DNA of 61,226 bases, filler included, from Collodictyon triciliatum (GCA_043381765.1; 5 parts of 4 records of this genome joined end to end with filler, not necessarily neighbours in it); one strand, 5' to 3'; shown: positions 2,553 through 60,372, counted from the first letter of the whole stretch. Program-made: numbers and translations. Notes: generated from the letters alone by a model not told the origin.

Positions 2553-5003
2553 ATGTCACACCCAGTGATCGTCTTTGTGTGTTGGCTCGCTTCGCTCTCT
2601 GCCTTTGTTGCGGGAGTTCCCATCGACGCGCTCGGCTCCGAACCTAGCTTTGCGGACNNNNNNNNNNNNNNNNNNNNNNNNNNNNNNNNNNNNNNNNNNN
2701 NNNNNNNNNNNNNNNNNNNNNNNNNNNNNNNNNNNNNNNNNNNNNNNNNNNNNNNNNNNNNNNNNNNNNNNNNNNNNNNNNNNNNNNNNNNNNNNNNNNN
2801 NNNNNNNNNNNNNNNNNNNNNNNNNNNNNNNNNNNNNNNNNNNNNNNNNNNNNNNNNNNNNNNNNNNNNNNNNNNNNNNNNNNNNNNNNNNNNNNNNNNN
2901 NNNNNNNNNNNNNNNNNNNNNNNNNNNNNNNNNNNNNNNNNNNNNNNNNNNNNNNNNNNNNNNNNNNNNNNNNNNNNNNNNNNNNNNNNNNNNNNNNNNN
3001 NNNNNNNNNNNNNNNNNNNNNNNNNNNNNNNNNNNNNNNNNNNNNNNNNNNNNTGGCTTTGTTTTCTCCTGGCTTTAATACACAACCAAGCCTCTATGCA
3101 AACACAATCGCACACCTGTCATCTTGTTTGTGGATATTTCGTCACTTTTTATGGATATTTCCTTCCTTCTAATTTTCTCTCAATTCTTAAAGGGTTTATA
3201 TATAAAAGAAGTTCATGTAGATATGATCATGTTAAATTCTTGGAATCGACACACCTATCGAAATAATATTAATCTCACCCAAATCGTTATATGAATCTTG
3301 TTTGTATACTCACAGCATGTCTCTTTCGCTCAACAATTGAGATAATAATTCACATCTCTTATCAACAACATATTGTGATGAATAAATTGTAATGTGATGT
3401 AAATCATAACTCAGGGGGGTATGTTGTTGTCGGACTCAACCCGAATGAAACGCTTTTCCGCGATATAACACACAACAAGAAGGGCCTTTTTGTTCCTGCT
3501 GTGCTTGATTGGGCTGAAGGACAGAATACAGACCCTTCCAGTCCACTTTACAGAAAGGTGAGTATTCATTTATGCTCATTATTGTATATAGATTCCCCCA
3601 ATATTCCTTTAACCTTACTCTTTCATTTTAAAAAAAGAAACTGCCAGAAATGTGTACATGTACATGCATAAGTGAAATTGCACTGAAGCTTTTGAGAAAC
3701 ATGAATCATATATGATACGGGCTTTTATCCGCCACATCACATGGTTTTTTCTTCAATAGGTGGACTCTTCAAAGGTCTATTCCTTAGGTCACTCCTTGGG
3801 TGGAAAGAGCTCGTATCTTGGCGCTTCATATGATACAAAAAGAATTGCGGGAGTCTTTGCCATTGATCCAGTTGATTGGTTTGTAAACCATGTTTGACTT
3901 GTATTGAACGAATAATTTCCAATTTCCAGAAATGCAATCTTTGAGTAGAATAATGTTTGTTCTAATGGTCATATTACACATCTCCACCTTTTGGTTGACC
4001 TAGCGAACCTGGTTGCATCTTCCCGGACAATGTATTTTCTTTTTTTTAAAAAAAACTGATACTTCATCATCCACTGGAGTTGAATAAGAATACAAGACTC
4101 GTGCATAATTACGCCATTCACTACAAAACTACAGTCTGTTTGCGAATATGATACCGATTACCCATCTGCTGCTGCGAGAGGAAACTATATCGCACCAGGG
4201 GTCGCTATGATACTCGGTTTATATTGTTATCTTAAAAGCACGTTTCTATACTTGCTTTTGTTTTCGTTCTTTGTTTTGCTTGATATGACTGTGTAAAATA
4301 ACTCCTAATATGGTTGCTTCATTTATCATCTGTGTTAGGTGCTGAGTTAGGTGGTGTGAGTCGTGGTGGTCCCGCATGCGCCCCAACCAAATGCAATTAT
4401 GAATGGTTTTTCAACCAAACTACGTCTGATCAATGGAGCATTATGGTAAAGCTAACGATAGTGGCTACGCTTTTTCTAATGCTGAATTAATTATTTTTTT
4501 TTACAAGGCTGCAGTGTTAGCTTATTTCCGTTTAGTGATAGTGCCTCTGTTTTAGTTCTACAATACTGGCCACACACAGTATATAGATTTGGTTCCACCC
4601 CCTGCTGTGGATCCGTGCACCCAGGGCACTCAAAGCAACGACGAGATTAAAAGACTCACACAAACTCTTATGGTTGCCTGGGCCGAGGTTTTACTAATTT
4701 CTGTTATGATTTCTGATGACTATAAAGCAACTCTGTACATCAATTCAATTAACAGCTCTTTTGTTCGATGATTCAGAGTTTAAAAAATTAATATATTAGA
4801 AAACAATCCGTAACCAGAATATTGACGAGTATCTCACTGGTTCATGGATGCAGTAATTTTTTTTTCGTACAAAAGCCATCGACTTGCAGATATCATATTA
4901 AAAATTGACCAAAGTATTTTTTGTTTAACAATACGCTCATTTATTGGGGAAAAGAGAGCAAGTAGCCTACGGAAAACTGCTCCCGAAGGTCAAGCAAGAA
5001 TAA
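2553..5003 (+). CDS. Secreted chlorophyllase-like alpha/beta hydrolase (multi-exon, partly in a gap)
   Basis: Signal peptide MSHPVIVFVCWLASLSAFVAG. Spliced exons give GHSLGG (nucleophile elbow, ~3788), AIDPVD (acid), GAELGG..PACAP..NYEWFF and GHTQYID (catalytic His). Stop TAA at 5001-5003. Confidence 0.75.
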
Positions 5004-14202: not shown

Positions 14203-14510
14203 ATTTCTTCATTTCTTCATTTCTTCATTTCTTCATTTCTTCATTTCTTCATTTCTTCATTTCTTCATTTCTTCATTTCTTCATTTCTTCATTTCTCTTT
14301 TNNNNNNNNNNNNNNNNNNNNNNNNNNNNNNNNNNNNNNNNNNNNTTAATTAATTAANNNNNNNNNNNNNNNNNNNNNNNNNNNNNNNNNNNNNNNNNNN
14401 NTTCTTCTTTTTCTTCTTTTTCTTCTTTTTCTTCTTTTTCTTCTTTTTCTTCTTTTTCTTCTTTTTCTTCTTTTTCTTCTTTTTCTTCTTTTCTTCTTTT
14501 CTTCTTTTTC
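14203..14510. repeat. (ATTTCTTC)n and (TTCTTTTTC)n arrays flanking a contig join
   Basis: Visible tandem arrays on both sides of the gap. Confidence 0.9.
14346..14357. other. Artificial six-frame stop linker TTAATTAATTAA inside an N gap (also at 28743-28754, 43207-43218, 53264-53275)
   Basis: Identical 12-mer centred in equal-length N runs four times; an assembly artefact. Confidence 0.97.
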
Positions 14511-17313: not shown

Positions 17314-20300
17314 TCATTGTTGACGTTTCATTCCAAATCCGCTGAGCTTCATCTGGAATTTTTCCGTGATTTTTTGGACATGCCGTGGTTTGTGATATTT
17401 CGTGACACTGTCTCGCAGAAGCTTTGATTATGTATATATGTGCGAGCAAACAAGGCGATGCATTTATTTTTTTTATCCTTTATTCGATTCAAAGCGCAGC
17501 GAGGTTGTGACATACAAAGAGGTGCGTGAAATACGCATGGTAGAGAGCATACACGATAAGGAGAAGACTACTGCGGAAAGGCTGGCACTGGAAAGAAATC
17601 AGTGATAGCTAGTTGGTCAGGCGGGCGGCTCAACTGGTTGATTGGTTGCTTAGGTAGCAGGGGTTGGATATGTTATGGGAGATGTCTTGCGATACATTCC
17701 CACATCTATCTTCGCTTGAAGTCATATTGAGCGGAGAATGTAGTGCGTGTTTCAGCACGCTGTTCAGGGCGCTGTATTGCATGAGGCTTTCCAGCCTGGT
17801 TACATTGTTTTCTCCTATGGTTAAGGCACTGGAACGAGAGATAAACATAAACATCTTAAAAGAACAATTAAATCACAAGAATTTTGAATTCTACGTGACG
17901 TCTTGTTTTTGTGGGTCTTTTATTTATTTATTTATTATTGGATTCGGACTACTTTCTTGAAATACTTACGAAAAATAAGAGAATACAAAACACCAAACAG
18001 CCATATGTCGCACGAGTCATGGTTTGCAATTCCTGTTTTGCTTCTTTCAAGTCTTCAGCAAGACGGAAAACTTCCTCAGTGATTTTTTGACGGAGTGTCC
18101 CAATCTCATCATCAGTTACTTGTTTCAAAGTGGACATCTCTTTTTTGTACTCTTCTTTTAACATTTCCTGTATTTAGAAACATTATTTCCTGCACTTTAT
18201 TGCAAGAAGAAAAGAAAAGAAAAGAAAAGAAAAGAAAAGAAAAGAAAAGAAAAGAAAAGAAAAGAAAAGAAAAGAAAAGAAAAGAAAAGAAAAGAAAAGA
18301 AAAGAGAAGAGAAGAGAAGAGAAGAGAAGAGAAGAGAGCAGAGAAAATAGTAAATGGGAATAGTGCATCGTTGAAGGCGTTATGAGTATTGCATTTAATA
18401 TAAATTTGATGTACAAAGGGATAATATTACATGGTTTTCCTCCATTCTCTGAATTCTCGATTTTGCATCAATTAAGTTGTGTGTTATTGTGTTAATGCCT
18501 TCAACAGCTTCTGTTAGGCTTGATTGATGCTTTTTTATTATATGGCTTATTGCTACTTGTTTGTTTTCGATTCTTTTTCCTGTCCAAAAGTTAAAATGTA
18601 AAAGAATCACCGATTACACAATCATGCACAATTATATAGCAATATGCAAACAAAACAAAACAAAAAGGAGTGAAATTTCATGAATGGAAAAATATGGATA
18701 CTCCTAAATTTCAACAAGTGAGATTTAAAAACTTAGATATGAGTGATTTTTTTTTTCACCGCATACGTGCATCACAATCCAATCCATGATATAAAACATA
18801 TAACTAGGTTACCACTATTGCCTACCTTGGTCCGCAAGAGTTTTCAAAACATTGAGGCTTCCATGGGAATCGTTCTCGCCTGTGTGTGCTGGAATTACAG
18901 AGTCTTTATTATTCAATTTGATGCACTACTAATTTTACATTGAAGTTATTGAAATATTTTTTTTTCACTAACAATCAATCAACAAATAATCTATAATACC
19001 TGAAGCAGCATGTTCATCGTGGACGTGTTTATGATGGAGCTCACTCAACTCATGCAGGCTTTCGAGCTCTCTTAAGCTTTTATCCTGATTATTACCAATT
19101 AGACCTCACAATTCATTAAAATAACTCTAATGGAAGAAAATAAGCATGTCAGGCGCACTATGCATATGTTAAGGGTCATAAAGGCATTTCCTACCTGAAT
19201 TTTCAGTGTTGGTAGTGGCGTATCTTCGGTTGTGTTATGAATTTTTGTATCGGTTGGTGCCTGAATTGAGGAAAAAATATGAATCAATTAGAAATAGGAT
19301 GATAAGCACGTGTTATTCGCTAAATTATAATATATATCTTGGATGGAAGAGAAAAAATATATAACGAAACGATACATGAATAATTCCTTCTGTCTGCTCA
19401 TCATTCCATGTGGGTTTTGGTTGGTGCGGGTGTATTTCTTAAATGATTTCAATTTTATAATAAATTAATATTCAACTAGAGAACAAGGATTGCGGAAATA
19501 TTGAGAGACTCTGCAAGCAAACCTTTTTTCAATTCTTCAATCATGGAGGACCCGTAAGCTCGAATGATAGTTATGGGGCAATAGTATTCGTCTCCATAAT
19601 GTGTCATGAATCGAAATTTCATGTATCTAAAAAGGAATTCGGTTGATTTATAAAACTAAAATAAAACACAATTTTATAGGTTTCGTTTCATGTCTATATC
19701 AACAATATACCCCCCTTTTTTTAAAATAAATAAATAAATAAATAAAAGGGCGCAAAGTACCTCACCCAGTATGCCTTTTCGAATATGTAGAGACTATCTG
19801 AGCGTGAGTTATTGGCCCTGAATGTTCCAAGAAGAGTCCAATTGGTCGTTGGATAACTGGAATAGTATGTTCATTTGCATCGTTTATAAAACCACACTTT
19901 ACATGCGAATTGACTGACGACATGGATACTAGTCTAAATAAAGTACTATATGTTCTATTTTTCGCCAGCTTGGTTTTTGGTTACACAATACAACAGCAGC
20001 TTTGTGTAATGAAATTTATGCATAAAAAATATTACTTTACAACTCATGGCTGGAAAACGCATCGATGATATACTCACGTTGTACTGCCCAGTACCATAAA
20101 GTCTTTTGGATTAGACGAGAAATACTCATAATTTCCCATCTCAACCCCCCTCAGTAGAATTTCTTCGCATAGCTCAACAACGATCCACTTTTTGACAGAA
20201 CACGGGTTCCGCATATATCGACTTAAATCCTCCATGATAGTGGAGCGTGCGCTCTATAGAGCTTATCATGTGAGAGAGATAAATACGATTCGATTCGATT

Positions 20301-27385: not shown

Positions 27386-27433
27386 CTTTGTAAGGCATAA
27401 CCTCGCTGCACTTTGAATCGAATAAAGGAAAAA
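27386..27433 (+). mobile_element. LINE 3' tail, family A, with 16-bp TSD
   Basis: CTTTGTAAGGCATAACCTCGCTGCACTTTGAATCGAATAAAGG(A)n matches the LINE end near 44115-44164. TSD AAGAGTGTGTGCAGGA at 27370-27385 and 27434-27449. Confidence 0.92.
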
Positions 27434-28798
27434 AAGAGTGTGTGCAGGAATCAGCATGCATTGTTGACTTCGTATCAAAGCCCGCCAAAGAGTCTTATCA
27501 CCATGTCGCCTCAACCAATTCAACATTGCAGATTTTCAACATCTTGCTAAATTTACTTGTTAATGACGTTTATTTCGCTTTTATTTTACCAGCATCTCCA
27601 ATTTTCAACAGAAGCCATTCCCAAATAAAGATATGATGATGCTACTTTTTGAAGGATTTGATTGATACAAACCACCCGCTGCTGTAGCCTTGTTGGTACC
27701 AAGCGAGTCCCTTCGGGACACTGTAAAATCTTCATCACCGAACCGCCGCTTACTGCGCAAAAAAACCACTCTACCAGTCTGGAATATTGATTAGCGGTAT
27801 ACTTTATCATTTTCATTACGGCATAATATTCATGCCACCACTTCGAAACCTTCACAGTACTCATCTGCAGGCTTGTATCTTACACCTTGCGACAACGAGT
27901 TCAACAGAACACTAACGAGCGGCGAACAAAGCAAGCAAACCGCAGATTCATGGCACTCACTCCACCCTTGTATGTCTCCACATATAGACTTTCCCACTGA
28001 ATTTCCGGCATCCTTTTTCCCATTCGGAAAATTCCCACAATCTCCCCAAAAAAAGGCAGAAAACCAAAGAATCGAACAGATCAAAGACAAATCAGAAGCA
28101 GAATCAAATCCAACACCCATCTGTGCGGCAGGAAAGCAACAAGAAAACCTCCCAAAATCACATCAAAGGCAACTCGCAAGTAATGTGCAGCGGTATTCAT
28201 CACACAATGATGGGCCGGTGATATTCTTATTCTTCTTTTTGTTGTTCAACAATTGGATCACCTGGTTGTGTATTTGCAAAACGAAGAGGACGATTAGTTG
28301 CGGTCGAATTTCTTCAAGTCCCCTCGTTAACGTCTCCTGTCAACATAAACCAGCCCTTTTTTTTTTTTTTTTTTAATTTTTTCCAACTAGGATTCCGATG
28401 TTAGAAAATAATTTTTTTTTTAGTTGTTCTCTTTCAATATATCACCTCCCTCTCAAAAGAGTAAATAAAATAATTGGAAAAACAAAGACAATAAAAAAGA
28501 ATTGGAAATGCTGTGCCTCGTTAGGGGCATGTGTGTTGTCTCCCTTTCCCTCCGTGTTAGCTTTCTCTCTCTTTCTCGCTTTTTCTTTTTCCTGTTGCTG
28601 TTGTTTCTGTTGTTTGTTTGTTTGTTTGTTTGTTTGTTTGTTTGTTTGTTTGTTTGTTTGTTTGTTTGTTTGTTTGTTTGTTTGTTTGTTTGTTTGTTNN
28701 NNNNNNNNNNNNNNNNNNNNNNNNNNNNNNNNNNNNNNNNNNTTAATTAATTAANNNNNNNNNNNNNNNNNNNNNNNNNNNNNNNNNNNNNNNNNNNN

Positions 28799-29253: not shown

Positions 29254-30129
29254 NNNNNNNNNNNNNNNNNNNNNNNNNNNNNNNNNNNNNNNNNNNNNNN
29301 NNNNNNNNNNNNNNNNNNNNNNNNNNNNNNNNNNNNNNNNNNNNNNNNNNNNNNNNNNNNNNNNNNNNNNNNNNNNNNNNNNNNNNNNNNNNNNNNNNNN
29401 NNNNNNNNNNNNNNNNNNNNNNNNNNNNNNNNNNNNNNNNNNNNNNNNNNNNNNNNNNNNNNNNNNNNNNNNNNNNNNNNNNNNNNNNNNNNNNNNNNNN
29501 NNNNNNNNNNNNNNNNNNNNNNNNNNNNNNNNNNNNNNNNNNNNNNNNNNNNNNNNNNNNNNNNNNNNNNNNNNNNNNNNNNNNNNNNNNNNNNNNNNNN
29601 NNNNNNNNNNNNNNNNNNNNNNNNNNNNNNNNNNNNNNNNNNNNNNNNNNNNNNNNNNNNNNNNNNNNNNNNNNNNNNNNNNNNNNNNNNNNNNNNNNNN
29701 NNNNNNNNNNNNNNNNNNNNNNNNNNNNNNNNNNNNNNTTATTTCGTTCTTCATTTTCTATTTGAATCTGCCAACGTGGCACTTTTCCCGGCGTAAATAA
29801 CAAAACCTGAACGGGATTTGACTAATTTGGCTGCTGCGGAGACCCGCTTCAGCGCGCTTTGTGGATGCACCGCCGCCAAAAGGAAAAATAAAGCAACACG
29901 AACTAACGAGAAAATCACGTGAAAAAGCAACCATAACCCAGCAGAAAACGAAGAGCGGGTGCGATAGAAGCAAAAGAAGAGAATAAGCATGTGTAAATAA
30001 CTTTTGGAATCAAATAGGGCGGGTCTGGACTTGGGCTGTAATGGCACTACCCAACTCGCGCGTTAGGTTTCGAGTGGGGATTGACTTTGTTCAACTACGC
30101 CTAGCAGAAAGTCATCCAATAAGGTAAAC

Positions 30130-36006: not shown

Positions 36007-37408
36007 TTATTGAGAGAGAACGATGACCGAGTATGGGCCCAGGTAGACGTTTCCGTAGTAGCTGAGGCCTACAGAAGCAGCCGAGTTGGATTTAGTTGGA
36101 ACGCATAGAAGACAGCAACCAAAACCCCGCATGAAATCACCGAAAAAAGAAAATAAAAATTTTAAAGAAAGACGCATATCTACAGAATTCAACAGCAAGA
36201 AAAAGAGCTGCAAATAATACAGAGCTGGAAGTGGTGGGGTATCCCTCATCCACACTCATGCGTTCCTTTTTTGTTTTGTTTTTGTTTTTGCGGCGTAATC
36301 TTTCTTTTCTTTTTCATGCTTGTTACCGTCGCGGTTGCCTGGTGTGGCTTGGACTGTGGTGTACTGGGCTCCAAAGTCTGTGAAGTCAGGGGAGTAGCGC
36401 TTCAGGTCGCTGTTGAGGCGGACGCGGTAGTAGCCAGCTAAGTGGACAGAGAAGAGTTTGAGCCTGTGTGGAAATTCTTATGCAGGGCCAGGATGTGAGA
36501 GCGAAGTAAAAGGGGCGAAAGAAAGTATGAGAGAGAGAGAGTCTGGACGAACCGCGCGGCAAGCCGATAGTATATCCTCCAGTGTAAGCGCGGTTTGCAA
36601 AGTTTGCAATCACGATGACATCGTCACCAGCGCCGCCCTTGTTCCATCGATGGAATGCTGGGTGATTATGGGATTAAGGGTCATTGAGTGTTGGGGATTT
36701 CACCAGAGGGTCTTTGGAGTACACTTTTTTTTTTAATTAGGAATCTAAAAATAAAATAATATAAAAATTATAGTTTCATCTGTGTATGGATTTATGGGGC
36801 GGATTACTGGATAGATGATGGCTTACCAATCACTTTATCTTTGTTGTTGGTATGGAAGAAGTTGAGACTCGCTCCAGAAAGCTGTAAAGGAAGAGAAACA
36901 AGAAGCAATTTTTTTTTTTAAAAAAAACAAACAAACGAGGCGACGTGATGTCTTGCATGCGTTATTCGTATAAAAGGTCGCAGTGCGTGGATGTGTGTTT
37001 CGAAAAAAAGATGTCAGGTGTGGCGATACAAAATGAATGGAGTACCCCCGCACTCCAGCCATCCAGATTACGGCGAAGGCGAATCAAGTCACGGGTAAGA
37101 TAAAACAGCCCCTGTTTGATTTACGTGCAAATTTATTTTAGTTGATGTTGATTAATAGACCACTCAGTTTTTTAGGTACAATCCAATATGATTTGGAAGG
37201 CTAAGGCTGAGAAAGTTTTTGAGGTTTGACAGAGTACCTGGTATGGCCCAACTGAAGTCCATACTCCATTTCCGTTGTTGTCGTAATGGAAATCTCCCAC
37301 CTTCATTTTACGAATATAACATGAATAAGAATAAGGTATTTACTCACCAGCACATACATACGAATAAATTTGTTGGTAGTGNNNNNNNNNNTACGAATAA
37401 ATTTGTTT

Positions 37409-42859: not shown

Positions 42860-44164
42860 ATCACCCATCGATGACAAACTCATATCCAAAGAGCAGATTG
42901 GCTTCATGAACGGAAGGAACATCGACACAAACATCTGGGTTGTCAACAAAGAGTACATGAAATATCAAGTAAGCGGGACACCCGCGCTATGATTTTCTAC
43001 GACCTCGAGAAAGCATATGACTATGTGAACCACGAAGCACTGGAAACCATCCTACACAAAAGAGGCTTCTGTACCGGATTCACCAGTCTTATCAAGAAAT
43101 TGCACGACAATGCAACAGCGAGGGTACTCACGGCACGCGGACCTACGGATGCAATTCAAAGANNNNNNNNNNNNNNNNNNNNNNNNNNNNNNNNNNNNNN
43201 NNNNNNTTAATTAATTAANNNNNNNNNNNNNNNNNNNNNNNNNNNNNNNNNNNNNNNNNNNNCCTGAAGAACCAAAGGCGGTCCATTACGCCTGATTCTC
43301 CGCAATTCTCGATGACCATGGCGTACTCCAAATTCTTCCGATATAAAATCATCAGTCCGAATCCCTACAAACCGAAGAAGATGAGTCATTGGGCCGAAAC
43401 CATAGGCATTATAGACCCGCCGATAGTCAAAAGCTGGAAGCAAGCCCGCATATCTCAGCTACTCCCGAAACACCGCGCCCTACTTCTCAATATCTCCAAC
43501 AGAGAGCTGTGGATAGGTGCGCGTGTAGTCCATGCAGCAACGACCTCCCCAGAATGCACCATGTGCCATAGTGGAGATGACTCTATGGAACACACATTTG
43601 TGAAGTATTCTCTTGCTCAAAAAGTGACAGAGTCTACCCACAAGATGCTCTCTGAGCTTGATTATGCTCCCAATCGACTCAGCGCGTCTGACATCCTGTT
43701 TGGCCCACAATACCAAATGACCCACGACTCTAGAATACTCTGGACAGTCACAAGGGGTCATATGGTGTGGTTCTTATGGAGTGTGCGTGCATTCTCTCGC
43801 TCCATTGACTCAACCGAACGAGAAATCAATGTATTCAGGCTTGAGAGCCTCGTGCAATAAAGCTTCCTGAACAATCTGCTGAAACACGCCCGCATTCTTC
43901 GCTACTCTGACCGCAAGCGAAGAGAGATGTGGGAATGTGTCGTGCGATATCTCCCACAGCACATCCAACCTCTGCTACCCACGCAACCAATCAACCAGTT
44001 GGGACGCCCGCCTGGCCAACTCGCTATCACTGATTTCTTTCCAGTGCTAGCCTCTCCACGGTAGTGTCTTCCCCTACTCGCGTTTGTTTTTCACCATCCA
44101 CATCTATCTCGCCCCTTTGTATGGCATAACCTCGCTACACTTTGAATCAAATGAAGGAAAAAAA
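42860..44164 (+). mobile_element. L1/Tx1-like non-LTR retrotransposon ORF2 remnant (RT, zf-RVT, 3' UTR, poly(A)), split by a gap
   Basis: EQIGFMNGRNIDTNI and IFYDLEKAYDYVNH RT motifs, CTMC..DSMEH zinc motif, a frameshift and a stop. Ends CACTTTGAATCAAATGAAGG(A)n. Confidence 0.92.
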
Positions 44165-44810
44165 GTTCACCAGCCCTTCGATACTCCACCCATCCGCACC
44201 CGCTTTGTTGTTGTCGGGATGTATCTCCCGCAGGCCCAAGTAGATTGCGCGAAACACCCTTTGTACAACTACAAGCCCCACTTCCATTAGGGCATCTAGC
44301 GCAAAGTCCAGTGAATCATTCTGTCACCAGCGCCCCAGCCCACAGGGGACATTAATTTTCTACAAGTGGAAACATAATCACAAACTTTGTAACAAAGACT
44401 GTTTTGGACAGGAACTGTCAAAAAATCAGCCTATGTGGATGGAGCGGATCTCTTTAAAGTTGAAGGCGTCGATCTTTTTTCATAAAGAGAAATCCTGGTT
44501 CTCTTGCGCCATTATCTGTTTCCCTGTCTCGCAGGACAGGCACTAAGGAGAAGGACGAAGTAAATTATACCAGGATAAGACCGAAAAGAAGAGAACATCC
44601 TGGTTCTTCAGGACTGGCAAACAGGCCTAAGCCGGCTCTCTCTCTCCTTTGGCGCACAGCAACCTTGTTGCCTGATCCGATCTGCAAAGATTAGAGCAAC
44701 CAACTTGCAAAAGCACCATAGCCTACCTGTTCAGCTAAACTGCCTCCTTAATTACTTTTTTTTTTTTGTTTCTGTCTATGCCCAGAGTTCCAGCAATACC
44801 GGCACCAGAG

Positions 44811-47846
<3,036 letters not shown>

Positions 47847-48123
47847 AGACAACGAGTGACGATAGCGCACGACTCGCTACGCCTCATCTCGCAAAGATGT
47901 TCGATACCATATACATTTCCTCGCTTTGCTGTGCTTGACCCATCCGCCAAGAGGATCCGCAACACAGGGGCCGAGCAAAGTGTGAGAGATATGTGCCGAC
48001 CAGGTTTAGGCTGGGCGGCAGGATGAATCAACCTGGTCGGAGTTTGTGAAGGCGGGTTCGATCAGAGGGTGACCCTCCTAACTTAATGCTTAATGGGAGC
48101 CGTGTCGGCTGAAAAGGTAAAAA

Positions 48124-48127
<4 letters not shown>

Positions 48128-48155
<28 letters not shown>

Positions 48156-48163
48156 AAAAAAAA

Positions 48164-48194
<31 letters not shown>

Positions 48195-48322
48195 CAAAAC
48201 AAAACAAAACAAAACAAAACAAAACAAAACAAAACAAAACAAAACAAAACAAAACAAAACAAAACAAAACAAAACAAAACAAAACAAAACAAAACAAAAC
48301 AAAACAAAACAAAACAAAACAA
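48128..48322. repeat. (AAAAC)n microsatellite
   Basis: Visible tandem array. Confidence 0.95.
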
Positions 48323-48384
48323 AAAAAAAAAAAAACAAGCTAGTAACACATAAGGGATTTAAAGGTAAGATACAAGGGAAGGCA

Positions 48385-48430
48385 CCCTCGGTCCTGCACA
48401 AAAGTTGAAAGGAAGAATAAAAAAAAAAAA
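48385..48430 (+). mobile_element. Short poly(A) retroposon tail, family B, with 18-bp TSD
   Basis: Same core as 26330-26379. TSD AAGATACAAGGGAAGGCA at 48367-48384 and 48431-48448. Confidence 0.9.
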
Positions 48431-48534
48431 AAGATACAAGGGAAGGCATGTTAACAAAATCCTTTTATACTAGAGGGTGGCTGTGTTTGTTTGGAGCAGA
48501 GCTCTGATTGACGTTATCTAAAAGCAGAGTTGGG

Positions 48535-50371
48535 ATGGACACTTGCAGAGAGCAGCACGCTTTGTTTGATACGGCCATCGACGAGGTTTGAGATAGTAAA
48601 GATCAAAAACACATTTATTATACCTCCTTCTGGTTGCATAGACTGAAAGAATAAGACTTTAATTGAATAGGTTGTTTTCGAGACTTTGGAGAGACTCCCT
48701 TGACAAATAAAATTTAACCATATTTCCTTTCCTTTCCTTTCCTTTCTTGTTTTACTTCCCTCTTCTCATTCTCCCACCGTCAAGTTTTACAATTTATACC
48801 TTTAACTATATATTTTCTATGTATTTTAGGTAACCACCACGTTTGAAGGCTACGATGAAATCATAAGGGAAAGGATGTCACGCATTTGTAGTATTTTTAT
48901 CGAAGCAGAAAATAATGCCCGAGAACAAGTACAATTTGCTTATATTTATAGAATATGATAACAAAGAAAATACACTTTTGATTTAAAAATAACTCAATTT
49001 TTTCAAAAGAAATTCATTATGAGGGTAATCCCTTATAAAAAAAAAAACAGAGGGACAGAACTCATCGACTGGCTGATATTAAGATGAATAACTTTATCTT
49101 TAATATTTTAGGTTAGAGCGAAGCTACTTTCAAAAATGAAGAAGGAACACTTAGATGAGAGTACATTGCAATTCGCGGGAAATATAGTCTCAAGACTGAA
49201 CAAGTTAAAGCGCAGTAAAATTTTAGGCGCCAGAGAAAATTGTGCTTTGCCCGCTGCTGTCATCGCCATTAATGCCACCAAAGCGATTGATGACTTTGTA
49301 CGATCGAAAAGGAATTTATCTTCCTGGGCTCCTTCATTTCATCGAAAACCAAAACAGCTTAGAATACTTCCCTCAGATAGTCTCGAAGTAAAAGGAAATG
49401 AGCTTGTTTTGAACCGATTTTTAAGAGCAATACAAAGAGGAATGCCTTATTTGATGGGAGTTGAAGTGGATAAGTTGGTGCTGCATTCTGAAACAAATGG
49501 AATACAAGGAGGTAATAATGAGCATCAGTGCCCGTGGGGGTTGGCTGTGCACCAATTATCTGGGAATATTTATGTTGGGGAGTACACATATCATAAAATT
49601 CGTGTTTATTCACCGGAATTAAAACTGATGCGAACAATTGGATCTTACGGGAATGAGGAGGGCCAGTTAAACTATCCCATCGGACTAACTTTTACCCCAT
49701 TGGGGCACCTTGCTGTCGTTGAGCATGTTACACAACGAGTTCAGATATTCAATTCGAAAGGTCAGCATGTCTGCTTCATAGGTGGGAGAAACTCGAGACA
49801 TCTAGGACTTACAAATGTTTACAGCGCGGCTTTCTCATGGAGCACGTCACAGGAAGATGAAGAAAGGGGTGATATTGAGGTATCTGACGACTTAGAGGAT
49901 GACATTCATGTGGACCAGTCTTTATACAACCAAATATCTGTGTTTCTAGCTGATATTGATTGCCAGGATATCAAAAAAGTAAATGTAGGTTCAGGTGCTA
50001 TCGAAAATTTAATCCGCCCACCTGGAAACGTCCGTGGATTCTCTTCTGTTTTAATCGATAAAATAGGCCGCCTGGTAGCGGCCGGGGTTCATGGGGACGC
50101 ACTCTATTACTTTGGAAAAGATGGCAAGTTCCTTCAGTCTGTCTCTATCCCTATGTTCCGAGACTATTGTTATCTTGCGCATGGTCCTGATGATGGTGTG
50201 GTGGTATCTCAACAAGCAACTGGGAAAATCCTCTTTTTCGATGTCGAATGCAACTGCTATGCCAGTATGGAATTGAACAGGCCGGTGGGGATATCGTTTG
50301 ACTATGACGGCAGATTTGTGGTGGCTGAACGAGACTCTGCGATGGTTCGTGTGTTTGCACCAAACAAATAA
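48535..50371 (+). CDS. NHL-repeat protein, paralog of 206-1633
   Basis: [16 protein letters not shown] and [12 protein letters not shown] motifs. Two short upstream exons from ATG 48535 are inferred. Confidence 0.82.
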
Positions 50372-50672
50372 GAAGCTCAGAGACGACACCATAAATAACG
50401 AAACAGAAGCAATCGCTAGGGTATTTAGAAAAAGTTTATGTTGTGTGGGGCGTATAAAACAGAGAAATCGCACCCTGTTTCATATTTTCCACATTTGTTA
50501 TGATTACATGCAAACAACCATTTTTGAATCTGATCTGTTCGGGCCATCTCTTGGGAAAAGGAGAAGCGGGTGGGTGATTCAACAAACCTTACGCGTGGCT
50601 CTCGTCCCGCCACATGCCCGATGTCAAACAGCCACCCCGAACACTGTTGAACAAATCGTTGATGTGTATAGA

Positions 50673-51106
50673 ATGATCGAAGTTGTCTGTAACGATCGCC
50701 TTGGGAAAAAAGTGCGAGTCAAATGCAACCCAGACGACACCATCGGAGATCTCAAAAAGCTCATCGCTGCGCAAACCGGTTTGCTTTATTCATTTTCCCT
50801 TCCATTATCTCGTTATTCCTTCTTCTGTTTCTTCTTTTTTATTTATTATTATTATTATTAATATTATTGTTCATTTGTATTCGAACACAACTTGAATCTC
50901 GCGCTTAGATGACATCAATCACTGTCCTTTTCTCACCCTGTTATTCTTGCTCTGAACATGCCTCACTTTCGCACACCCGCGGCTCACCAGGCACACGGCC
51001 CGAAAAGATCCGTCTTCAAAAATGGTACACGGTTTTCAAAGACCACATCACTCTGGAGGACTACGAGATCCATGACGGGATGGGGCTGGAGCTCTACTAC
51101 CTCTAG
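50673..51106 (+). CDS. UBL5: Ubiquitin-like protein 5 / Hub1
   Basis: [18 protein letters not shown]...[17 protein letters not shown]...GMGLELYYL; intron 50779-50990. Confidence 0.97.
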
Positions 51107-51394
51107 TGACGCCCTTTCCCAGTACATACAATTTGCCCAACATTCTTTGCGTCAAATAAAACAGAGCACCTCTCGTCTCGCAGACAAAACCCGAAGCATC
51201 AAGGGCTCCATCCTTTCTTGTTATTTTATGTTAGATTTATTTCCTTCTTTCATCACTAAAGAGCTTCTTGTCCTATCTTTTACGTAATAGATGAAAAAAA
51301 AAAATAATGGAACCACACAACTGCCCGGGGAACTTGAGCGGGTTCAAGAGCTGAGATTAAGTCATTGTTGTATTAATATAAGACAGTAGAAGGG

Positions 51395-51510
51395 GTATAC
51401 CATCTTTCGAATGGTAAACCTGGTGCGCTAGTATCCAAGGTCTCACCACCTATTTTCACCAAGATTGTGTAGTGGTGAAGGCTGCCAGGAAAGACCCGAC
51501 AGCCTGATTT
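51395..51510 (-). ncRNA. Candidate Fanzor omegaRNA scaffold
   Basis: Consecutive hairpins directly 3' of the Fanzor ORF: an 11-bp stem with two G-U pairs valid only on the minus strand, a 7-bp stem, and a GAAA-capped stem. Confidence 0.6.
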
Positions 51511-51616
51511 TTTTAGAGAAAGGTGTTTAGGCATTTTTTGAAGGATTAAAAGAACTTTGTTGAGTATACTTTTAGCGCTGTTAAGTCCCTTGTCAAGAAT
51601 ACACTTTGTTTGCTTT

Positions 51617-51658
51617 TGATATTTATTTATTCTATATACCTAGAATAAATAAATATCA
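51617..51658. mobile_element. 42-bp perfect palindromic insertion (TG...CA) with 5-bp TSD GCTTT
   Basis: TGATATTTATTTATTCTA-TATACC-TAGAATAAATAAATATCA. Removing it restores the Fanzor reading frame. Confidence 0.85.
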
Positions 51659-52930
51659 GCTTTCTGAGCGGTTGCATTCTTTACATATGAGACATCTATA
51701 CACTTTTTTTTTTTTGGAGTTTCCTTTCGGTTGCATATATTCCAGTTCTTTTTCGCAGTTGTAGCACATCTTGAGGTTATAAATTCATCTACGCGAACTG
51801 TTCCAAAACGTTTGGACAGTATTTTTCGTAACCCGCTTACAATTGTTGGCGTAAAATGTTTCATCAGACATTTTCTGCTCCAGTCTCCATACGCGAGTAC
51901 AACATCCTTACCAAATGTCATTTCGATTCGGTCCATAAACAACTCTTCACTTCTTTTTGTATTAACATATTGAATCCATCTCATCTTTCGAAAAGTTTCT
52001 GGTTCATAAAACCTGGAAAATCTATCTGGTACCTTAATTTCATAGATACATATTTTCGAATTTTTTCATCATCGACTGTGCATGAATTATGTTTACTCAG
52101 TTCTGTCAATAAATCGATTTAAGATACTCTTGATGTCTCAAACTGCTGATTCTCTTCACAAGTCATGAGACCAAAATAAAAAACATTTTGTAAATCTGTT
52201 GTCATGCATATCCCTGAATAAGTGTACATTTATTTTATCGCGCAAGAGTATTTCGTGATTTTCAAGAGATTTACTATCATGTCATCCTTGGTGTGCCGTG
52301 TAACGTAATTTCTTACCTGCCTCATCCACCATGCAAACAAAATTAAACTTGCCTGCGTCCTCTCCAACTTTCTTTTTTTTCGCTAATAAAGATACCTGCT
52401 CTTCGGAATGTTGATGTATATAAACATGTTCTTGGTTTTTTTTTGATTAAATTAGAAATTGAATTTGAAATACCTTTCTTTTCAAACAATAATGACACCG
52501 CCAAGCCGCCTGTTTGTTTCATGTATATAAAACTGTAGTCTCTTTGATGAAAGACTCTTCTCTTCATTTCAAAGAACTTATCCCATAGTGTCTCTTTGCA
52601 TCCTGATATATTCTTCATTAATGAAGTTTTTCCAGATAATAGCAATAGATCTATCAAACATGCAATATCTAGAGTAATATGACATGGTATATTGGTAGTT
52701 CTTTTAGAGATTGGTTAAACAGTTTTTGGTTCCAATGTCCTCAAAAATGCGATTCATGTGAATCAGACATGGAATGTACTTATTTGGATTGACTTTGGCG
52801 TCATATTCTATACCATTTTACAATATCGCTGGGATGATATGATGCAAATGCATTGTAGCCCATTCTTTATATTGCTCCGGTATTTCGAGTTTCTTGAAGA
52901 TGGCTTCTTTTTTAACTTCATTACTCTGCC

Positions 52931-52958
52931 AACTTTGAATCGAATAAAGGAAAAAAAA
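52931..52958 (+). mobile_element. LINE 3' tail, family A, with 17-bp TSD inside Fanzor
   Basis: ACTTTGAATCGAATAAAGG(A)n flanked by AACTTCATTACTCTGCC at 52914-52930 and 52959-52975. Confidence 0.92.
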
Positions 52959-53095
52959 AACTTCATTACTCTGCCTTTATTAATACATTCCGTAACATTC
53001 TCATATTTAGGAACTGTTTGATTTATAAAGCGCAGTGACCTCTTCACAAAATGTTCCGTAATGTTATTATGATAAGCTATTAACATTTGCTTCGC

Positions 53096-53133
53096 CACTT
53101 TGAATCGAATAAAGGGAAAAAAAAAAAAAAAAA
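53096..53133 (+). mobile_element. LINE 3' tail, family A, at the point where Fanzor homology stops
   Basis: CACTTTGAATCGAATAAAGGG(A)n; no second TSD copy visible. Confidence 0.8.
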
Positions 53134-53175
53134 TTTTGTGGTTTATATTATAAAAAAATACAAACTGTTTTTAAG

Positions 53176-53213
<38 letters not shown>

Positions 53214-53550
53214 ATTTCANNNNNNNNNNNNNNNNNNNNNNNNNNNNNNNNNNNNNNNNNNNNTTAATTAATTAANNNNNNNNNNNNNNNNNNNNNNNNN
53301 NNNNNNNNNNNNNNNNNNNACTCCCCTGACCCGGGGGGAGGGGGTAAAGGAGAAAAAGGGGGGGTGGGGAAGAATTAAACACAGGGGGGGGGGGGGGGGA
53401 GGACAATATTTCGATTACTTGTAATTATATACACAATTATAAAGTATTCAATTAATCAAACTTTGAAGCGATCAAAGAAGTACATCGTTCTATTCATTTA
53501 TTTATAAATTCATTTTTAGGATTGCAAAATAGAGAGAGAAATTGTTCAAC

Positions 53551-56208
53551 CTCGACGCAATGCAGATATGAGGATAGTTGCAGCTTCAGGCTTCAGCAGA
53601 CCCGCCATATCCTTGACTGTCATGGAATCCAAAAAAAAAAAAAACTGTCAATATGAGACAATGAAATAATATTTATGAAACAAATCTACTGATTAATGTA
53701 TATAGAATAACTGAACGCATAAACAGACAAAAGGACATAGCCATACCTGCCAAGATGTGAGTCCCATGACGCACTAGTTTGTGAGCAAGGTCGACATAAT
53801 ACTAGAATGTTCCGTGTTGAAGGTGAAAAATAATTCGTATGAGAGGAGGAGGATGGATAAATAATAGACGAAAATTATACGGAAAGAAATCCATCTGATA
53901 GTTTGTTTTTTCATTTTCGTCTGCTTTTGTTTTCGTTTTTCTTAAAAGTCCTTACGTCTAAAGTGTATTTGGTTCTATTTGAATCTGTCAAGTCGCCCGA
54001 GTAGCAGATGGCTGCTTCAATAACACCTCCAGCTTCACCCACAGCATCCATACCCAGCTATTGGTTTCAAAAGAACCATTTGTATCGATATGAAGAATTT
54101 TACACACACACACAAAAAAAAAAAAAAAGGATATATATTAATTGTTGGGACGGATATCCGAGGAAAACATAATCTTTAGGCAGAGTTATATGTAATTTCC
54201 AATAGCTTAGTATGCCACATCTTCCACCTTTAAGTTGTCGACGTAATTGAGCGAGTCAAAAACACGGAAAATATCCATTCCTTGACGGACCGCCTCACGA
54301 CAGAATCGGTACTAAAGTGATATCGATCGGAATTAAATACACCCAGGAGTCTATCCTCCGTCGGTGGATTCATGAGACTCATCACACTTACCACAACATT
54401 GTCGGGGTAGTTTGTGTAGCCAACTGCATTTGCACCTCTGAGTAACATCTGGAAAGGAATATTAGGAACCTTTTCTCTCATCTCCGCTACGGTAGTGATG
54501 GGCAAAAAAAGTGTATTTTAGTTATTGCAATAAATTTATGTGTGCCTAAGTAAAGATATTATGAGTGATTTTATGAATCAAGTCAAGGTAATAAAGAGTA
54601 TCAGATGATATATCATATACACAGGGAATGAATGAGAGAAGCAAATACATCTTTCGCTGTTGGTTACCTAGTCTGTCCCAAGGACATTCATAAAGGAAAC
54701 GCATTGATACGTCGTACGTAGCGCCTCCTAATTATTTAATTTTGGTTAATTTTGGTTAATTTTGGTTAATTTTGGTTAATTTTGGTTAATTTTGGTTAAT
54801 TTTGGTTAATTTTGGTTAATTTTGGTTAATTTTGGTTAATTATATTATATTGTATTGTATTGTATTGTATTGTATTTGTATTTGTATTTGTATTTGTATT
54901 GTATTGTATTGTATTGTATTGTATTGTATTGTATTGTATTGTATTGTATTGTATTGTATTGTATTGTATTGTATTGTATTGTATTGTATTGTATTGAGAC
55001 AGTGTTTCATAGCAAGACAGTCACATAAAGAGAGAATGAACGAAAAGAATATCATGTTTGTAATCGGAGAAGCAAACCCCAATTTTCTAAACTCAGAAGA
55101 TTGTTGAAAATATGCGAAGTCTGATGCGATATTTTATTGATATCGTATGTTCGCAATCGTGTTGCCAAAAGGGACTGAACCAAACGGATGGTTACATCGT
55201 ATAAAAGTTTAAGATATGAAATACATCAAGAATATTACAATATGAAAAATGTACATAATCAAGTTGTAGGTAATCTACATAGTAATACATATACGCTATG
55301 GCGTTCATTTCTTTGTAACGAATAAATAGGGAAAAAAATTATGGCATTCATTTACCTGGTGGGCATCTCTCCATGTCGTATCTGTTAAGAGTAAACCTCT
55401 GTGGTTGCGAATGGCTTTGGCAAACTCAGCGGGTCCCTTTAAATATTGAAGTTTATTTCAGAAAAATGAACCAGAATTAATTTTTTTCTTCGATTCAAAA
55501 AACTTTGCAGGATTAGACAAGATACATTTTTTTCATTTATTCGATTCAAAGTGGAGTATTGTACGAGACATAGCGGTACCTTTTCTTTTAAAAGATATCT
55601 CCATCCTGTCGAGCATTTTTCCTTCGGCACAGATGGAATAATCGGTAAGGTCTATGCCATCGGTGAGATTTAATATACAATATATGAAATCTGCTATCAA
55701 GATTGTGAATAAGATTTGTTCCTTAAATTAGAAACAGTAAATTCAGTTACATCTGTACGGGTAATAAGCGATGGTACTGAATATAATTTTAATAGGTATA
55801 TATGGGGAATTCAAAACTCACGCGCCCAGGTGGAACTTTCATGACCAAGGGAGTTGGTGGACCTTTATTGAAAATGTTATTTTTTAAAAATAATAATATT
55901 AATTGATCATATGACCCTGTGGCCACTTAAAATTTTATGCATTTAACATGACGTTTCAAATTCTGAGACAAGATAATCATAGGACGTGCATCACAAATGA
56001 ATTAAAAATAATTGGAGGACTTACCATTTACTGCTACTTCTGCGAGGTAATTCAGTATCTTGGATGTTCTATCTCCACTCGGCTTAAACTTCATCAAATC
56101 TGGATGAGTCTCGATGAATGATGTGTCCATTTCTACATTACCATCACATTTAAGTTTAGCCAATAAGCAAAACATTCATTGATGGATGATTTGGAGGGAA
56201 TTACGCCA

Positions 56209-57579: not shown

Positions 57580-60372
57580 TTNNNNNNNNNNNNNNNNNNN
57601 NNNNNNNNNNNNNNNNNNNNNNNNNNNNNNNNNNNNNNNNNNNNNNNNNNNNNNNNNNNNNNNNNNNNNNNNNNNNNNNNNNNNNNNNNNNNNNNNNNNN
57701 NNNNNNNNNNNNNNNNNNTCACTATTATTATTATTATCACTATTATAATTATTGGAAAAAGAAATAAAAATATTGACAGACAATATAATTACAATATAGA
57801 CGGTAAATTTGTTTCTATCAAGTTACTTTTATTTGGTGATTAAGCCGAATCAAGAACGAGTCATTCAAAATGCTATCATTTAAATGGGTGGCCAAATTAT
57901 TGCATTACCTGCACTCGAGGATTAACTTCAATAAAGTAGTAATTCCCAGTAATTGTGTCAATCAAAAACTCCACGGTGCCCGCGTTGGCATAATTTGATG
58001 CTCTGGTATCAATGGAATAGAATGGTGTATTTTATTGTTTACAATTAGCCTAGAGTGAATTATCCGCCAAGGAAAAAAAAAGTATCACTCGTTACACGAC
58101 TACTAAAAGTGAAGCATATAATTGTAGAATAAGAAGAATATGGAAGATGCGAAAGGGAATAAAATAGTTGAGGGAAAGAGAGAGAAATAAAATAAATATA
58201 TATGTGCAATTTTTTTCATTATATATGTGTGTGTATGTGTGTGTTAACAAGTTAAACATGCCTGGCCAGATGAATGGCATCTTTAACAAGCTTCTCGCGT
58301 AGCTCGCTCGTAATGTTTGGGGCTGGAAGTTTTGTGACTTCAGCATATGTACAAACAAAAATACGAATTCGAAAAACAAATGAATATATTAAAGAACTCG
58401 ATAAAATACCAGGGGCTATTTCAACCACTTTTTGGTGGCGGCGCTGAATAGAGCAGTCTCGTTCATACAGGTGTGTGATATTTCCGTGGCGGTCAGCAAG
58501 AATCTGGACTTCGACATGGCGTGGATTTTGCACAAACTTTTCAATAAACATCGAGCCATCACCAAAAGCCTGATTACATCATTTGAATCAAATGAGTATA
58601 AAAAAATAATTTGTTCAGTCTGAATTGTTTGGTAATTTTGACTTTATGCATATTTAACAAATCATTTTCATACAAAAAGATAGATGAGACAGATAATAAC
58701 CTGTTTTGCTTCGGAACTGGCGCGTTCAAATGACTCAACAAATTCATCACTATGATCAGATAAGAAATATGAGTTTGGATTCGGTAACGCTGTTCATTCG
58801 AAAAAAAACCAAATTAATTAATGAAATGAAGACAAGACAAGACAAGACAAGACAAGACAAGACAAGACAAGACAAGACAAGACAAGACAAGACAAGACAA
58901 GACAAGACAAGACAAGACAAGACAAGACAAGACAAGAGAATGCATATCTACACCAGAATTCAATCGACAAATAATTGCAACTAAAAACATTACATGCTAT
59001 TTACTCGGCGCATGCCACGACCACCTCCACCCATGGTTGCCTTGAGCATGACTGGGAAGCCTATCTCTATTGCTGCTTTCAGTGCATCTTCAGAGTTCGT
59101 GACAGGTTTTTCTGTTCCAGGGATAACAGGAACACCAATGGATCTGCGATAAGCATCATAAAAGAATTATGAAAAAAAAAAAGTAAAACTAAAAGAAAGT
59201 GATGATGATAACAATAGCATAAAAGTAAAATAATTATGATAAAAAGCACAACAAGAAAAATATAATAATTATAGTTATAATAAGACATAATAATGATGAC
59301 AGAATAAACCCTATAAGTGTAATGCTCATGAAAGAACTTAAGTTACTTGGCCAAGTTGCGAGCTTTGGTCTTGTCTCCAAAGATCTCTAAGGCTGATGGA
59401 TTTGGTCCGATAAAAACAATACCAGCATTGGCACACGCATTTGCAAACTCACTTCTTTCAGAAAGGAATCCGTATCTTTTGGTGTGTAGCAAAGTATAAG
59501 TAGGGAGTTTGATTATCCACACATAAAAAAATATCACGATACTGCCAAGCCGGTTTAATTCTTTTTAATATACAGCTTCAGCTCGTAGAGAAGTATTAGA
59601 AGAAATGAAGACGTTTGTGGGCGACAAATAAAATAAAACCAAAAAAAAAAATACCCTGGATGAATTGCATCTGCGCCGCTCTCCTTTGCTATACGGATTA
59701 TATCTGCGATGTCAAGATATGCTTGGACTGGGGATCTAAATAGAACGCGAGAAAAAGTTAACCATATTTTCATATAGCCTTTTATCCTATCACTCATATA
59801 TAATAAAATGCTGTAGGCCTTCATTCTGTCATCAGTGTCCCCACCACGATAACAAAAATACGAATGAAATATAACTAAAATTATGATATATTTAATTCGA
59901 ATTGTGATGAAAATGCAGAGAAATATATATATCATAACATCATTTCTACATGTACAAATCAAACTGCACCCTTACTTTCCTTTCCCAACGAGATAGGACT
60001 CGTCAGACTTTGTTCGATGTAATTGGAATCTGTCCTCGTGACTATATATCCCCACTTAACCCCATATGTATAGAAGGAAAGCATGTATATTAGCATAAAT
60101 ACATCAATACACATAAGAAATTGGATTAAAAAAAAACATAAATGAATAATAAGACAATTAGTATTAAGAAACAAGCCTGTTCGAAGGCCGAGCTCCTCAG
60201 CGGCACGAAAGACACGCACGGCGATTTCCCCGCGGTTGGCCACGAGAATCTTCTGAAAAGGCGGGACGCGCGACTCTCCTGCCACTGCAAAAAACTTCAC
60301 CCCGAGTGGGACTGAGTTGAGCCATTTTTTGGCCAGTGGGAATGCAGACGATGGGCGGAGCCAACCGGACAT
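53551..60372 (-). CDS. PYC: Pyruvate carboxylase, mitochondrial; 3' part lost in the gap
   Basis: [84 protein letters not shown]; about 22 exons splice in frame. Confidence 0.97.
54739..54996. repeat. (TTTTGGTTAA)x10 followed by (TATTG)n, in a PYC intron
   Basis: Visible compound tandem array. Confidence 0.95.
55481..55554 (-). mobile_element. Two degenerate family-A LINE tails in a PYC intron
   Basis: Minus strand reads CACTTTGAATCGAATAAATG(A)7 and TTTGAATCGAAG(A)7. Confidence 0.6.
58829..58936. repeat. (AAGAC)n microsatellite, intronic; (AAT)n arrays also at ~56209-56300 and 60791-60843
   Basis: Visible tandem arrays. Confidence 0.95.

Follow-up and report, generated by a model that had tools for sequence, protein, structure and literature searches.

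A probable Fanzor1 pseudogene with a likely guide-RNA remnant among host genes of Collodictyon triciliatum

The locus

Here we describe a locus in a 61,226-nucleotide (nt) stretch of DNA from Collodictyon triciliatum (GCA_043381765.1; hereafter the window, meaning the whole stretch at its full length) that very probably holds a pseudogene of Fanzor1, truncated at its 5' end, shifted in frame and riddled with stops, in a eukaryotic chromosome. The relic lies at the right-hand edge of a contig of 9,957 bp (43263-53219), where it is read from the minus strand, and its 3' tail holds what is probably the remnant of a guide-RNA scaffold (Table 1). A preliminary description, made from the sequence alone, had placed a fossil nuclease gene of the Fanzor1/TnpB type, with a RuvC active site, at 51380-53095; its upper boundary is right, while its lower one agrees roughly with the end of the RNA-model match, at 51396. 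The window consists of several contigs tied together by linkers of the form N44-TTAATTAATTAA-N44 (14302-14401, 28699-28798 and 43163-43262, in addition to the joint beside the relic), and gene neighbourhood across these joints may be artificial; further runs of N fill 2658-3053, 29254-29738, 37382-37391 and 57582-57718.

Similarity to Fanzor1 proteins

The longest fragment, of 141 amino acids and translated from 51640-52065 on the minus strand, served as query in an exhaustive phmmer/HMMER search of 1.84 billion representative proteins, which returned 1,054 relatives at E <= 0.001, 158 at E <= 1e-10 and a best match at 7.9e-25. A word-indexed search for longer proteins yielded no relative, which is a limit of its sensitivity, since the exhaustive search gave 1,054. 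Among the 177,635 sequences of the Protein Data Bank (PDB), listed up to E 10, the same fragment drew five, and the top three are all Fanzor1: Parasitella parasitica PpFz1 (E 5.1e-5), Spizellomyces punctatus SpuFz1 (8gkh; E 2.4e-3) and Guillardia theta GtFz1 (E 0.024). The nearest complete relative, P0002 (634 amino acids), matched the window by tblastn (summed E 5.5e-55); the four segments of this match run collinearly, and P0002 residues 137-584 correspond to 53098 down to 51576 on the minus strand.

P0002 in turn aligns with SpuFz1 from end to end (E 9.2e-37) and has three Fanzor1 chains as its sole relatives in the PDB up to E 10; no TnpB, Cas12 or Fanzor2 chain appeared, the presence of Fanzor2 in that copy of the database being unchecked. 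The significant similarity is therefore to characterised Fanzor1 proteins and not to Fanzor2 or TnpB. Ten relatives were scanned with Pfam, and seven matched PF07282 (Cas12f1-like TNB, the TnpB zinc ribbon) at E <= 0.01, two of the ten above the curated cut-off. Judged by sequence comparison, the nearest complete protein, at 44% identity, falls clearly inside Fanzor1, and the resemblance of the relic to this family is far beyond chance.

These matches bear out the identity that the preliminary description had proposed for the gene, including by the frameshift-aware or tblastn comparison with Fanzor proteins that it had recommended; the nine peptide strings that it quoted likewise all occur, distributed over three frames of the minus strand from 53077 to 51585. 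It is scarcely credible that the locus is a chance or low-complexity resemblance, or a bacterial TnpB contaminant. Pfam is silent on the translated fragments and the region is A/T-rich with homopolymer runs, yet the collinear P0002 segments and the 1,054 database relatives speak against such an origin, all 263 tblastn segments obtained with 154 relatives fall inside 51300-53200, the relatives of solved structure are eukaryotic Fanzor1 only, and the flanks are eukaryotic genes.

Catalytic motifs

The three RuvC acidic codons that had been singled out beforehand are present where they were placed (Table 1). The metal ligands that Saito et al. (2023, PMC10432273) give for SpuFz1 are E541, D383, N385 and D606, which the 394-residue tag offset of the 8gkh chain turns into positions 935, 777, 779 and 1000; the glutamate of the window was placed on 8gkh directly, and the two aspartate codons through P0002. 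SpuFz1 belongs to the same family as the relic, whose Asp, Glu and Asp fall on its D383, E541 and D606, and the order GDWS ... DE[FY]xTS ... zinc ribbon ... RD is common to both. The difference is one of state: SpuFz1 is intact and multi-copy, and its omega-RNA-guided cutting of DNA has been shown (PMC10432273), whereas the relic is broken and so distant that its fragment reaches it only at the E value given above.

According to Jiang et al. (2023, PMC10530073), the canonical RuvC-II glutamate is replaced by glycine or proline and a glutamate is relocated, and Bao and Jurka (2013, PMC3627910) report a conserved G500/E536 pair in Fanzor1. The relic has this arrangement, with glycine at the old site in YGDWS and the glutamate of VDEFITS 34 codons after it. 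The Fanzor1 motif of the latter authors, D-X(125,275)-[TS][TS]-X-X-C4 zinc finger-X(5,50)-RD (PMC3627910), can likewise be followed from the aspartate at 52357-52359 through TS at ~51777-51772 (~193 codons on) and CxxC...CxxC at 51772-51659 to RD at 51590-51585, in an order that holds only after frame changes at ~51761 and ~51612-51627.

Bacterial TnpB (IS200/IS605, ISDra2) and Fanzor2 share with this family the split RuvC, the zinc ribbon before RuvC-III and the guide RNA at the 3' end. By contrast with bacterial TnpB, the relic has its RuvC-II glutamate relocated and lies in a eukaryotic host; with glycine at the canonical RuvC-II position, no TnpB chain among the structural matches and intron-bearing eukaryotic flanks, it does not fit prokaryotic TnpB of the IS200/IS605/IS607 groups. 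The survival of the three catalytic codons is a matter of chance, like that of the other 44% of matching codons, and an acidic triad in a gene with at least 12 disabling lesions has no bearing on function.

Disabling lesions and loss of the 5' end

Lesions were counted by frameshift-aware alignment, with a script of our own, to three guide proteins. P0002 gave 198 identical codons out of 448 (44%), with 7 frameshifts and 6 in-frame stops; P0154 gave 197 out of 438, with 8 frameshifts and 6 in-frame stops; and P0001, for the middle part alone, gave 103 out of 201, with 3 and 2, respectively. Overall the damage amounts to 7-8 frameshifts and 5-6 in-frame stops, to which two small insertions are added. 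Whichever guide spans them, the frameshifts near 52715, 52000-52015 and 51761 are recovered, as are the stops at 52820-52818 (a TAA) and 52284-52282 (a TGA in place of the arginine of the relatives); a further single base is lost right after the RD codon pair (51585), as read against RDLNSA of the relatives. An alternative genetic code was considered and dropped, as the stops mix TAA, TAG and TGA and the neighbouring genes are clean in the standard code. No complete Fanzor1 reading frame remains, and as it reads the relic cannot make protein now.

A search with the opening 170 residues of each of 65 full-length relatives gave, for 24 of them, a segment starting at 53068-53101 and at residues ~93-153 of those relatives; no N-terminal homology to any of the 65 was found beyond 53101, and matches elsewhere all had E >= 0.07. 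It follows that ~136 codons are missing. The expectation that the locus could be largely reconstructed is not supported, both for want of these N-terminal codons anywhere in the window and because the middle of the gene, ~52280-52060, aligns poorly.

The Fanzor homology ends exactly at a 20-nt motif followed by poly-A, near the end of the contig, and the DNA past this truncation point, with poly-T at 53131-53219, is A/T-rich filler without a Fanzor match. Six copies of the motif with its poly-A occur in the window, against 0.01 expected: 17477-17496 (minus strand), 27409-27428, 44138-44157, 52931-52950, 53096-53115 and 55534-55553 (minus strand). Two of them, at 27409 and 52931, belong to inserts of 20-45 nt that have lost nearly all of their 5' part and have target-site duplications of 15 and 17 bp, respectively. 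A zf-RVT frame (43264-43860, plus strand, E 4.6e-5) runs from the start of the contig and is followed ~280 nt later by the motif copy that ends at 44157; frame and tail are the 3' part of a copy of a long interspersed nuclear element (LINE), and the motif seems to be the 3' tail of a family of LINEs. The insert at 52931-52958, bounded by the 17-bp direct repeat D13 (52914-52930 and 52959-52975), is an 11-codon insertion relative to P0002. At the truncation point there is no such duplication, so that a deletion or rearrangement would have accompanied the LINE tail there.

The second small insertion is a palindrome between the zinc ribbon and RuvC-III, with 18-nt arms of 100% complementarity, a 6-nt spacer, three stops and AAAGC on both flanks. 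It is absent at that point in P0002 and P0154, and may be either a short hairpin element or the footprint left by a transposon.

Some results weigh against reading the locus as a decayed Fanzor1 gene. Among ten raw fragments Pfam recognised no TnpB or Fanzor family, NCBIfam gave nothing relevant in five, and three of the four fragments searched against the PDB had no Fanzor match. Sequencing errors could account for some of the frame changes, which stand in short runs of A or T, and the one near 52429-52471 could be a 43-nt GT..AG intron, read by eye. Transposon ends and a transposase are lacking in the window, so that to call the relic transposon-borne would be to argue from its relatives. 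The caveats on single lesions lower the count; the stops within aligned blocks, the insertions and the lost N-terminus remain, and the gene is not rescued.

We accordingly consider it very improbable that the gene is alive, its breaks being introns and assembly errors and its N-terminus lying beyond the contig end. Such a reading gains from the stitching of the window from short contigs and the position of the relic against a contig end, from the introns that eukaryotic Fanzor genes carry according to Jiang et al. (2023, PMC10530073), from the possible GT..AG intron just mentioned, and from the frameshifts at ~51761 and after 51585, which are single-base length changes in short A runs. The stops at 52820-52818 and 52284-52282, however, lie inside well-aligned blocks; conserved blocks are broken by the LINE-tail insert with its 17-bp duplication and by the palindrome with its three stops; and 120 nt short of the contig end the homology gives way to a LINE tail, with A/T-rich filler beyond. 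The frame of the neighbouring NHL-repeat gene, on the same contig, is moreover clean over 419 codons, which argues that the breaks are not general assembly noise. A pseudogene thus remains by far the preferred reading.

The guide-RNA region

In the relatives, the nucleotide sequence is conserved over the final ~150 nt of the gene and for 50 nt past its stop, up to the right terminal inverted repeat (TIR). RNAalifold predicted 41 base pairs from six relatives, nine of them with changes on both sides, although the sample is small. A covariance model of the six, R1, was run unfiltered on both strands of the whole window, and its best match, at 51509-51396 on the minus strand, reached 19.4 bits (rough E 0.0035), against 8.2 bits for the next. 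This match covers the first two stems only and its score is partly shared with coding homology; it lies just downstream of the RuvC-III codon, in the expected place. The 131 nt of 51385-51515 fold in the sense direction with z -3.51 (none of 200 shuffles as good) and on the opposite strand with z -1.50, while the fold of a wider 351-nt downstream stretch is ordinary (z -1.36). On the strength of model and fold, 51396-51509 is probably the remnant of a guide-RNA scaffold, though a weak one.

Table 1. Features of the relic and its surroundings, and the intact element of its relatives (positions in the window, except in the last row)
Feature	Position	Strand	Basis or detail
Decayed Fanzor1 coding remnant in three frames, ~residues 137-584 of a 634-residue relative	51576-53098	minus	tblastn, frameshift-aware alignment
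RuvC-I aspartate codon GAC, in VGEDAG	52357-52359	minus	D of P0002 GADPG; 8gkh 777 = SpuFz1 D383
Glycine codon of YGDWS, old RuvC-II position	51886-51888	minus	Fanzor1-typical glycine
Relocated RuvC-II glutamate codon GAA, in VDEFITS	51784-51786	minus	direct alignment; 8gkh 935 = SpuFz1 E541
Zinc-ribbon segment CxxC ... CxxCxxC	51659-51772	minus	entered via frameshift at ~51761; P0002 residues 535-572, 50% identity
RuvC-III aspartate codon GAC, in TRD	51585-51587	minus	via P0002; 8gkh 1000 = SpuFz1 D606
Probable omega-RNA-like scaffold remnant (hairpins), 3' tail of gene	51396-51509	minus	R1, fold z
42-nt perfect palindrome between zinc ribbon and RuvC-III	51617-51658		inverted repeat I9
Tiny 5'-truncated insertion of apparent LINE tail inside gene	52914-52975	plus	~20 nt + poly-A at 52931-52958, 17-bp duplication
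Second apparent LINE 3' tail + poly-A, at 5' truncation point	53096-53130	plus	
Artificial contig joint	53220-53319		N44-TTAATTAATTAA-N44
UBL5 gene	50690-51106	plus	second-exon match to solved UBL5
NHL-repeat gene	49112-50371	plus	frame open for 419 codons
Protein kinase gene split by introns	46097-47715	plus	Pkinase E 6.6e-25
Intact 3.3-kb Tc1/mariner-type element of relatives	L001 174-3503; L003 3637-6952; L005 and L006 3631-6951		TIRs, transposase, 634-residue Fanzor1

Intact relatives and their transposon

Genes of the P0002 type were taken from ten loci on metagenome contigs and from five further loci in IMG/VR. Members of the P0002 family are 76-100% identical to one another, and their contigs, 57-254 kb in length, are classed as viral in IMG/VR, where one has the label GVMAG. 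Pairwise blastn revealed a shared unit of ~3.3 kb bounded by TIRs of ~30 nt, in which a transposase of 343-350 amino acids with DDE_3 and HTH domains (Tc1/mariner/IS630-type) is encoded on the strand opposite Fanzor1. On the large contigs the neighbouring genes are those typically met in giant viruses, among them DUF5755, the small chain of ribonucleotide reductase and a fused mRNA-capping enzyme. Copies of the element on different contigs have 73-96% DNA identity, which suggests recent mobility. The link to giant viruses and transposons made in the preliminary description thus holds for the nearest intact relatives, with their TIRs, transposase and viral contigs.

Mariner-Fanzor1 elements in giant viruses were already described by Bao and Jurka (2013, PMC3627910), and the build of PGv-1 and PUl-1, the Mariner/Tc1-borne Fanzor1 elements that these authors report from giant viruses and oomycetes, is matched by the elements L001, L003, L005 and L006. 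Compared with these, the relic consists of the Fanzor part alone, without transposase, TIR or left end. Within the window the transposase of the relatives was not found (best E 0.44), nor was a second Fanzor copy, all the tblastn segments of the relatives falling at the relic; no TIR pair was found either, the sole inverted repeat that spans the area being the LINE tail motif, and the left side is lost. The relic is thus not seen inside a transposon in the window, and that it once sat on a mariner-type element would be our reading of relatives at 44% identity.

It had also been suggested that an active ancestor could be rebuilt from other copies. There are none elsewhere in the window, and what speaks for further copies is three short database proteins with 57-79% identity to the fragment, P0005 (84 amino acids), P0077 (59) and P0155 (82), all from contigs of ~0.5 kb. 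At its start P0077 translates the same DNA in a wrong frame, and P0005 departs from the family sequence partway along; the three have the look of additional broken copies, either from the same genome or from one related to it. No intact close relative of the relic was found in the protein databases searched. As a separate observation, P0003 (378 amino acids, 52% identical to the fragment of the window) is a Fanzor1 fragment labelled '6-pyruvoyl-tetrahydropterin synthase', which looks like a mislabel.

Host neighbourhood

The relic sits among ordinary host genes, in a eukaryotic chromosome. The last (second) exon of the UBL5 gene, which matches solved UBL5 at E 3.1e-15, ends at ~51106, convergent with the relic and ~290 nt from the omega-RNA-like element. 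Farther to the left lie the NHL-repeat gene, whose best relatives have the RING/B-box/filamin/NHL build of metazoan TRIM-NHL proteins at just 21-25% identity, and the protein kinase gene. No tRNA was found in the window, and no Rfam family at gathering scores, a chance-level snoRNA match being the only one in the region of the relic. No sequencing run was found to contain the stretch, the nine listed sharing 0.05-0.07 of its words, and no RNA run was among them. Long microsatellite-like arrays occur at 48121-48408, 54736-54845 and 54894-54995, and comprise a repeat that reads KQNKT in one frame, an array of 10-nt units and an array of 5-nt units.

This neighbourhood bears on whether the relic belongs to an endogenised fragment of a giant virus and is no copy of a cellular transposon. 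The closest complete relatives do lie on 57-254 kb viral contigs, one a GVMAG, with neighbours of the giant-virus type, and Bao and Jurka (2013, PMC3627910) describe virus-borne Mariner-Fanzor1 elements as well as a copy in Hydra thought to be viral. We nevertheless consider an endogenised fragment improbable: the identity of the relic to those proteins is just 44%, its contig otherwise holds intron-bearing host genes (kinase, NHL and UBL5) and a LINE, no gene seen there being a viral hallmark, and the transposase of the relatives is unmatched elsewhere in the window.

Proposed history

If the locus is the remnant of a Fanzor1 gene, the intact gene would have encoded a protein of ~600-650 amino acids, of the TnpB/Fanzor1 type, which would have bound an omega-RNA whose template is the gene's 3' end together with the right end of the transposon, and would have cut DNA matching the guide through a RuvC site of Asp, relocated Glu and Asp. 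RNA-guided cutting is established for SpuFz1 and other Fanzors; for the intact form of the relic we infer it by homology only. The carrier, to go by the nearest intact relatives, would have been a 3.3-kb Tc1/mariner-type (DDE_3) element with TIRs of ~30 nt, as found on giant-virus contigs. This copy would since have lost its first ~136 codons at the insertion of a LINE tail; it would also have taken up the second, tiny LINE-tail insertion and the 42-nt palindrome, and at least 7 frameshifts and at least 5 stops accumulated.

A bolder history can be drawn from the viral setting of the intact relatives, the metazoan-type NHL gene, the three broken fragments and the sense-only fold. In it, a mariner-type Fanzor1 would have passed from a giant virus into an animal-like host genome, where the family multiplied and died out, and the omega-RNA module would have stayed folded, and perhaps transcribed, well beyond the decay of the nuclease gene. 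We regard this sequence of events as unlikely, and hold to the plainer reading of a decayed Fanzor1 copy.

Such a copy is to be expected, since Fanzor loci are known by the thousand from viruses and eukaryotes; a genome may have as many as 122 copies, and associations with mariner, LINE and other elements are on record (PMC10530073). We found no paper that pairs Fanzor1 with the word pseudogene, which reflects wording more than absence.

Significance

The relic indicates that the host lineage, very probably, once carried a Fanzor1 whose nearest intact kin sit in giant-virus genomes. As such it is one data point for the spread of Fanzors by viruses and transposons and their subsequent decay, a picture that is already known; it brings no new mechanism and no usable nuclease, and alone it matters little. 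Possibly more useful is a by-product of the comparison, the 3.3-kb mariner-type Fanzor1 element of the giant-virus contigs, with its clear ends and covarying omega-RNA.

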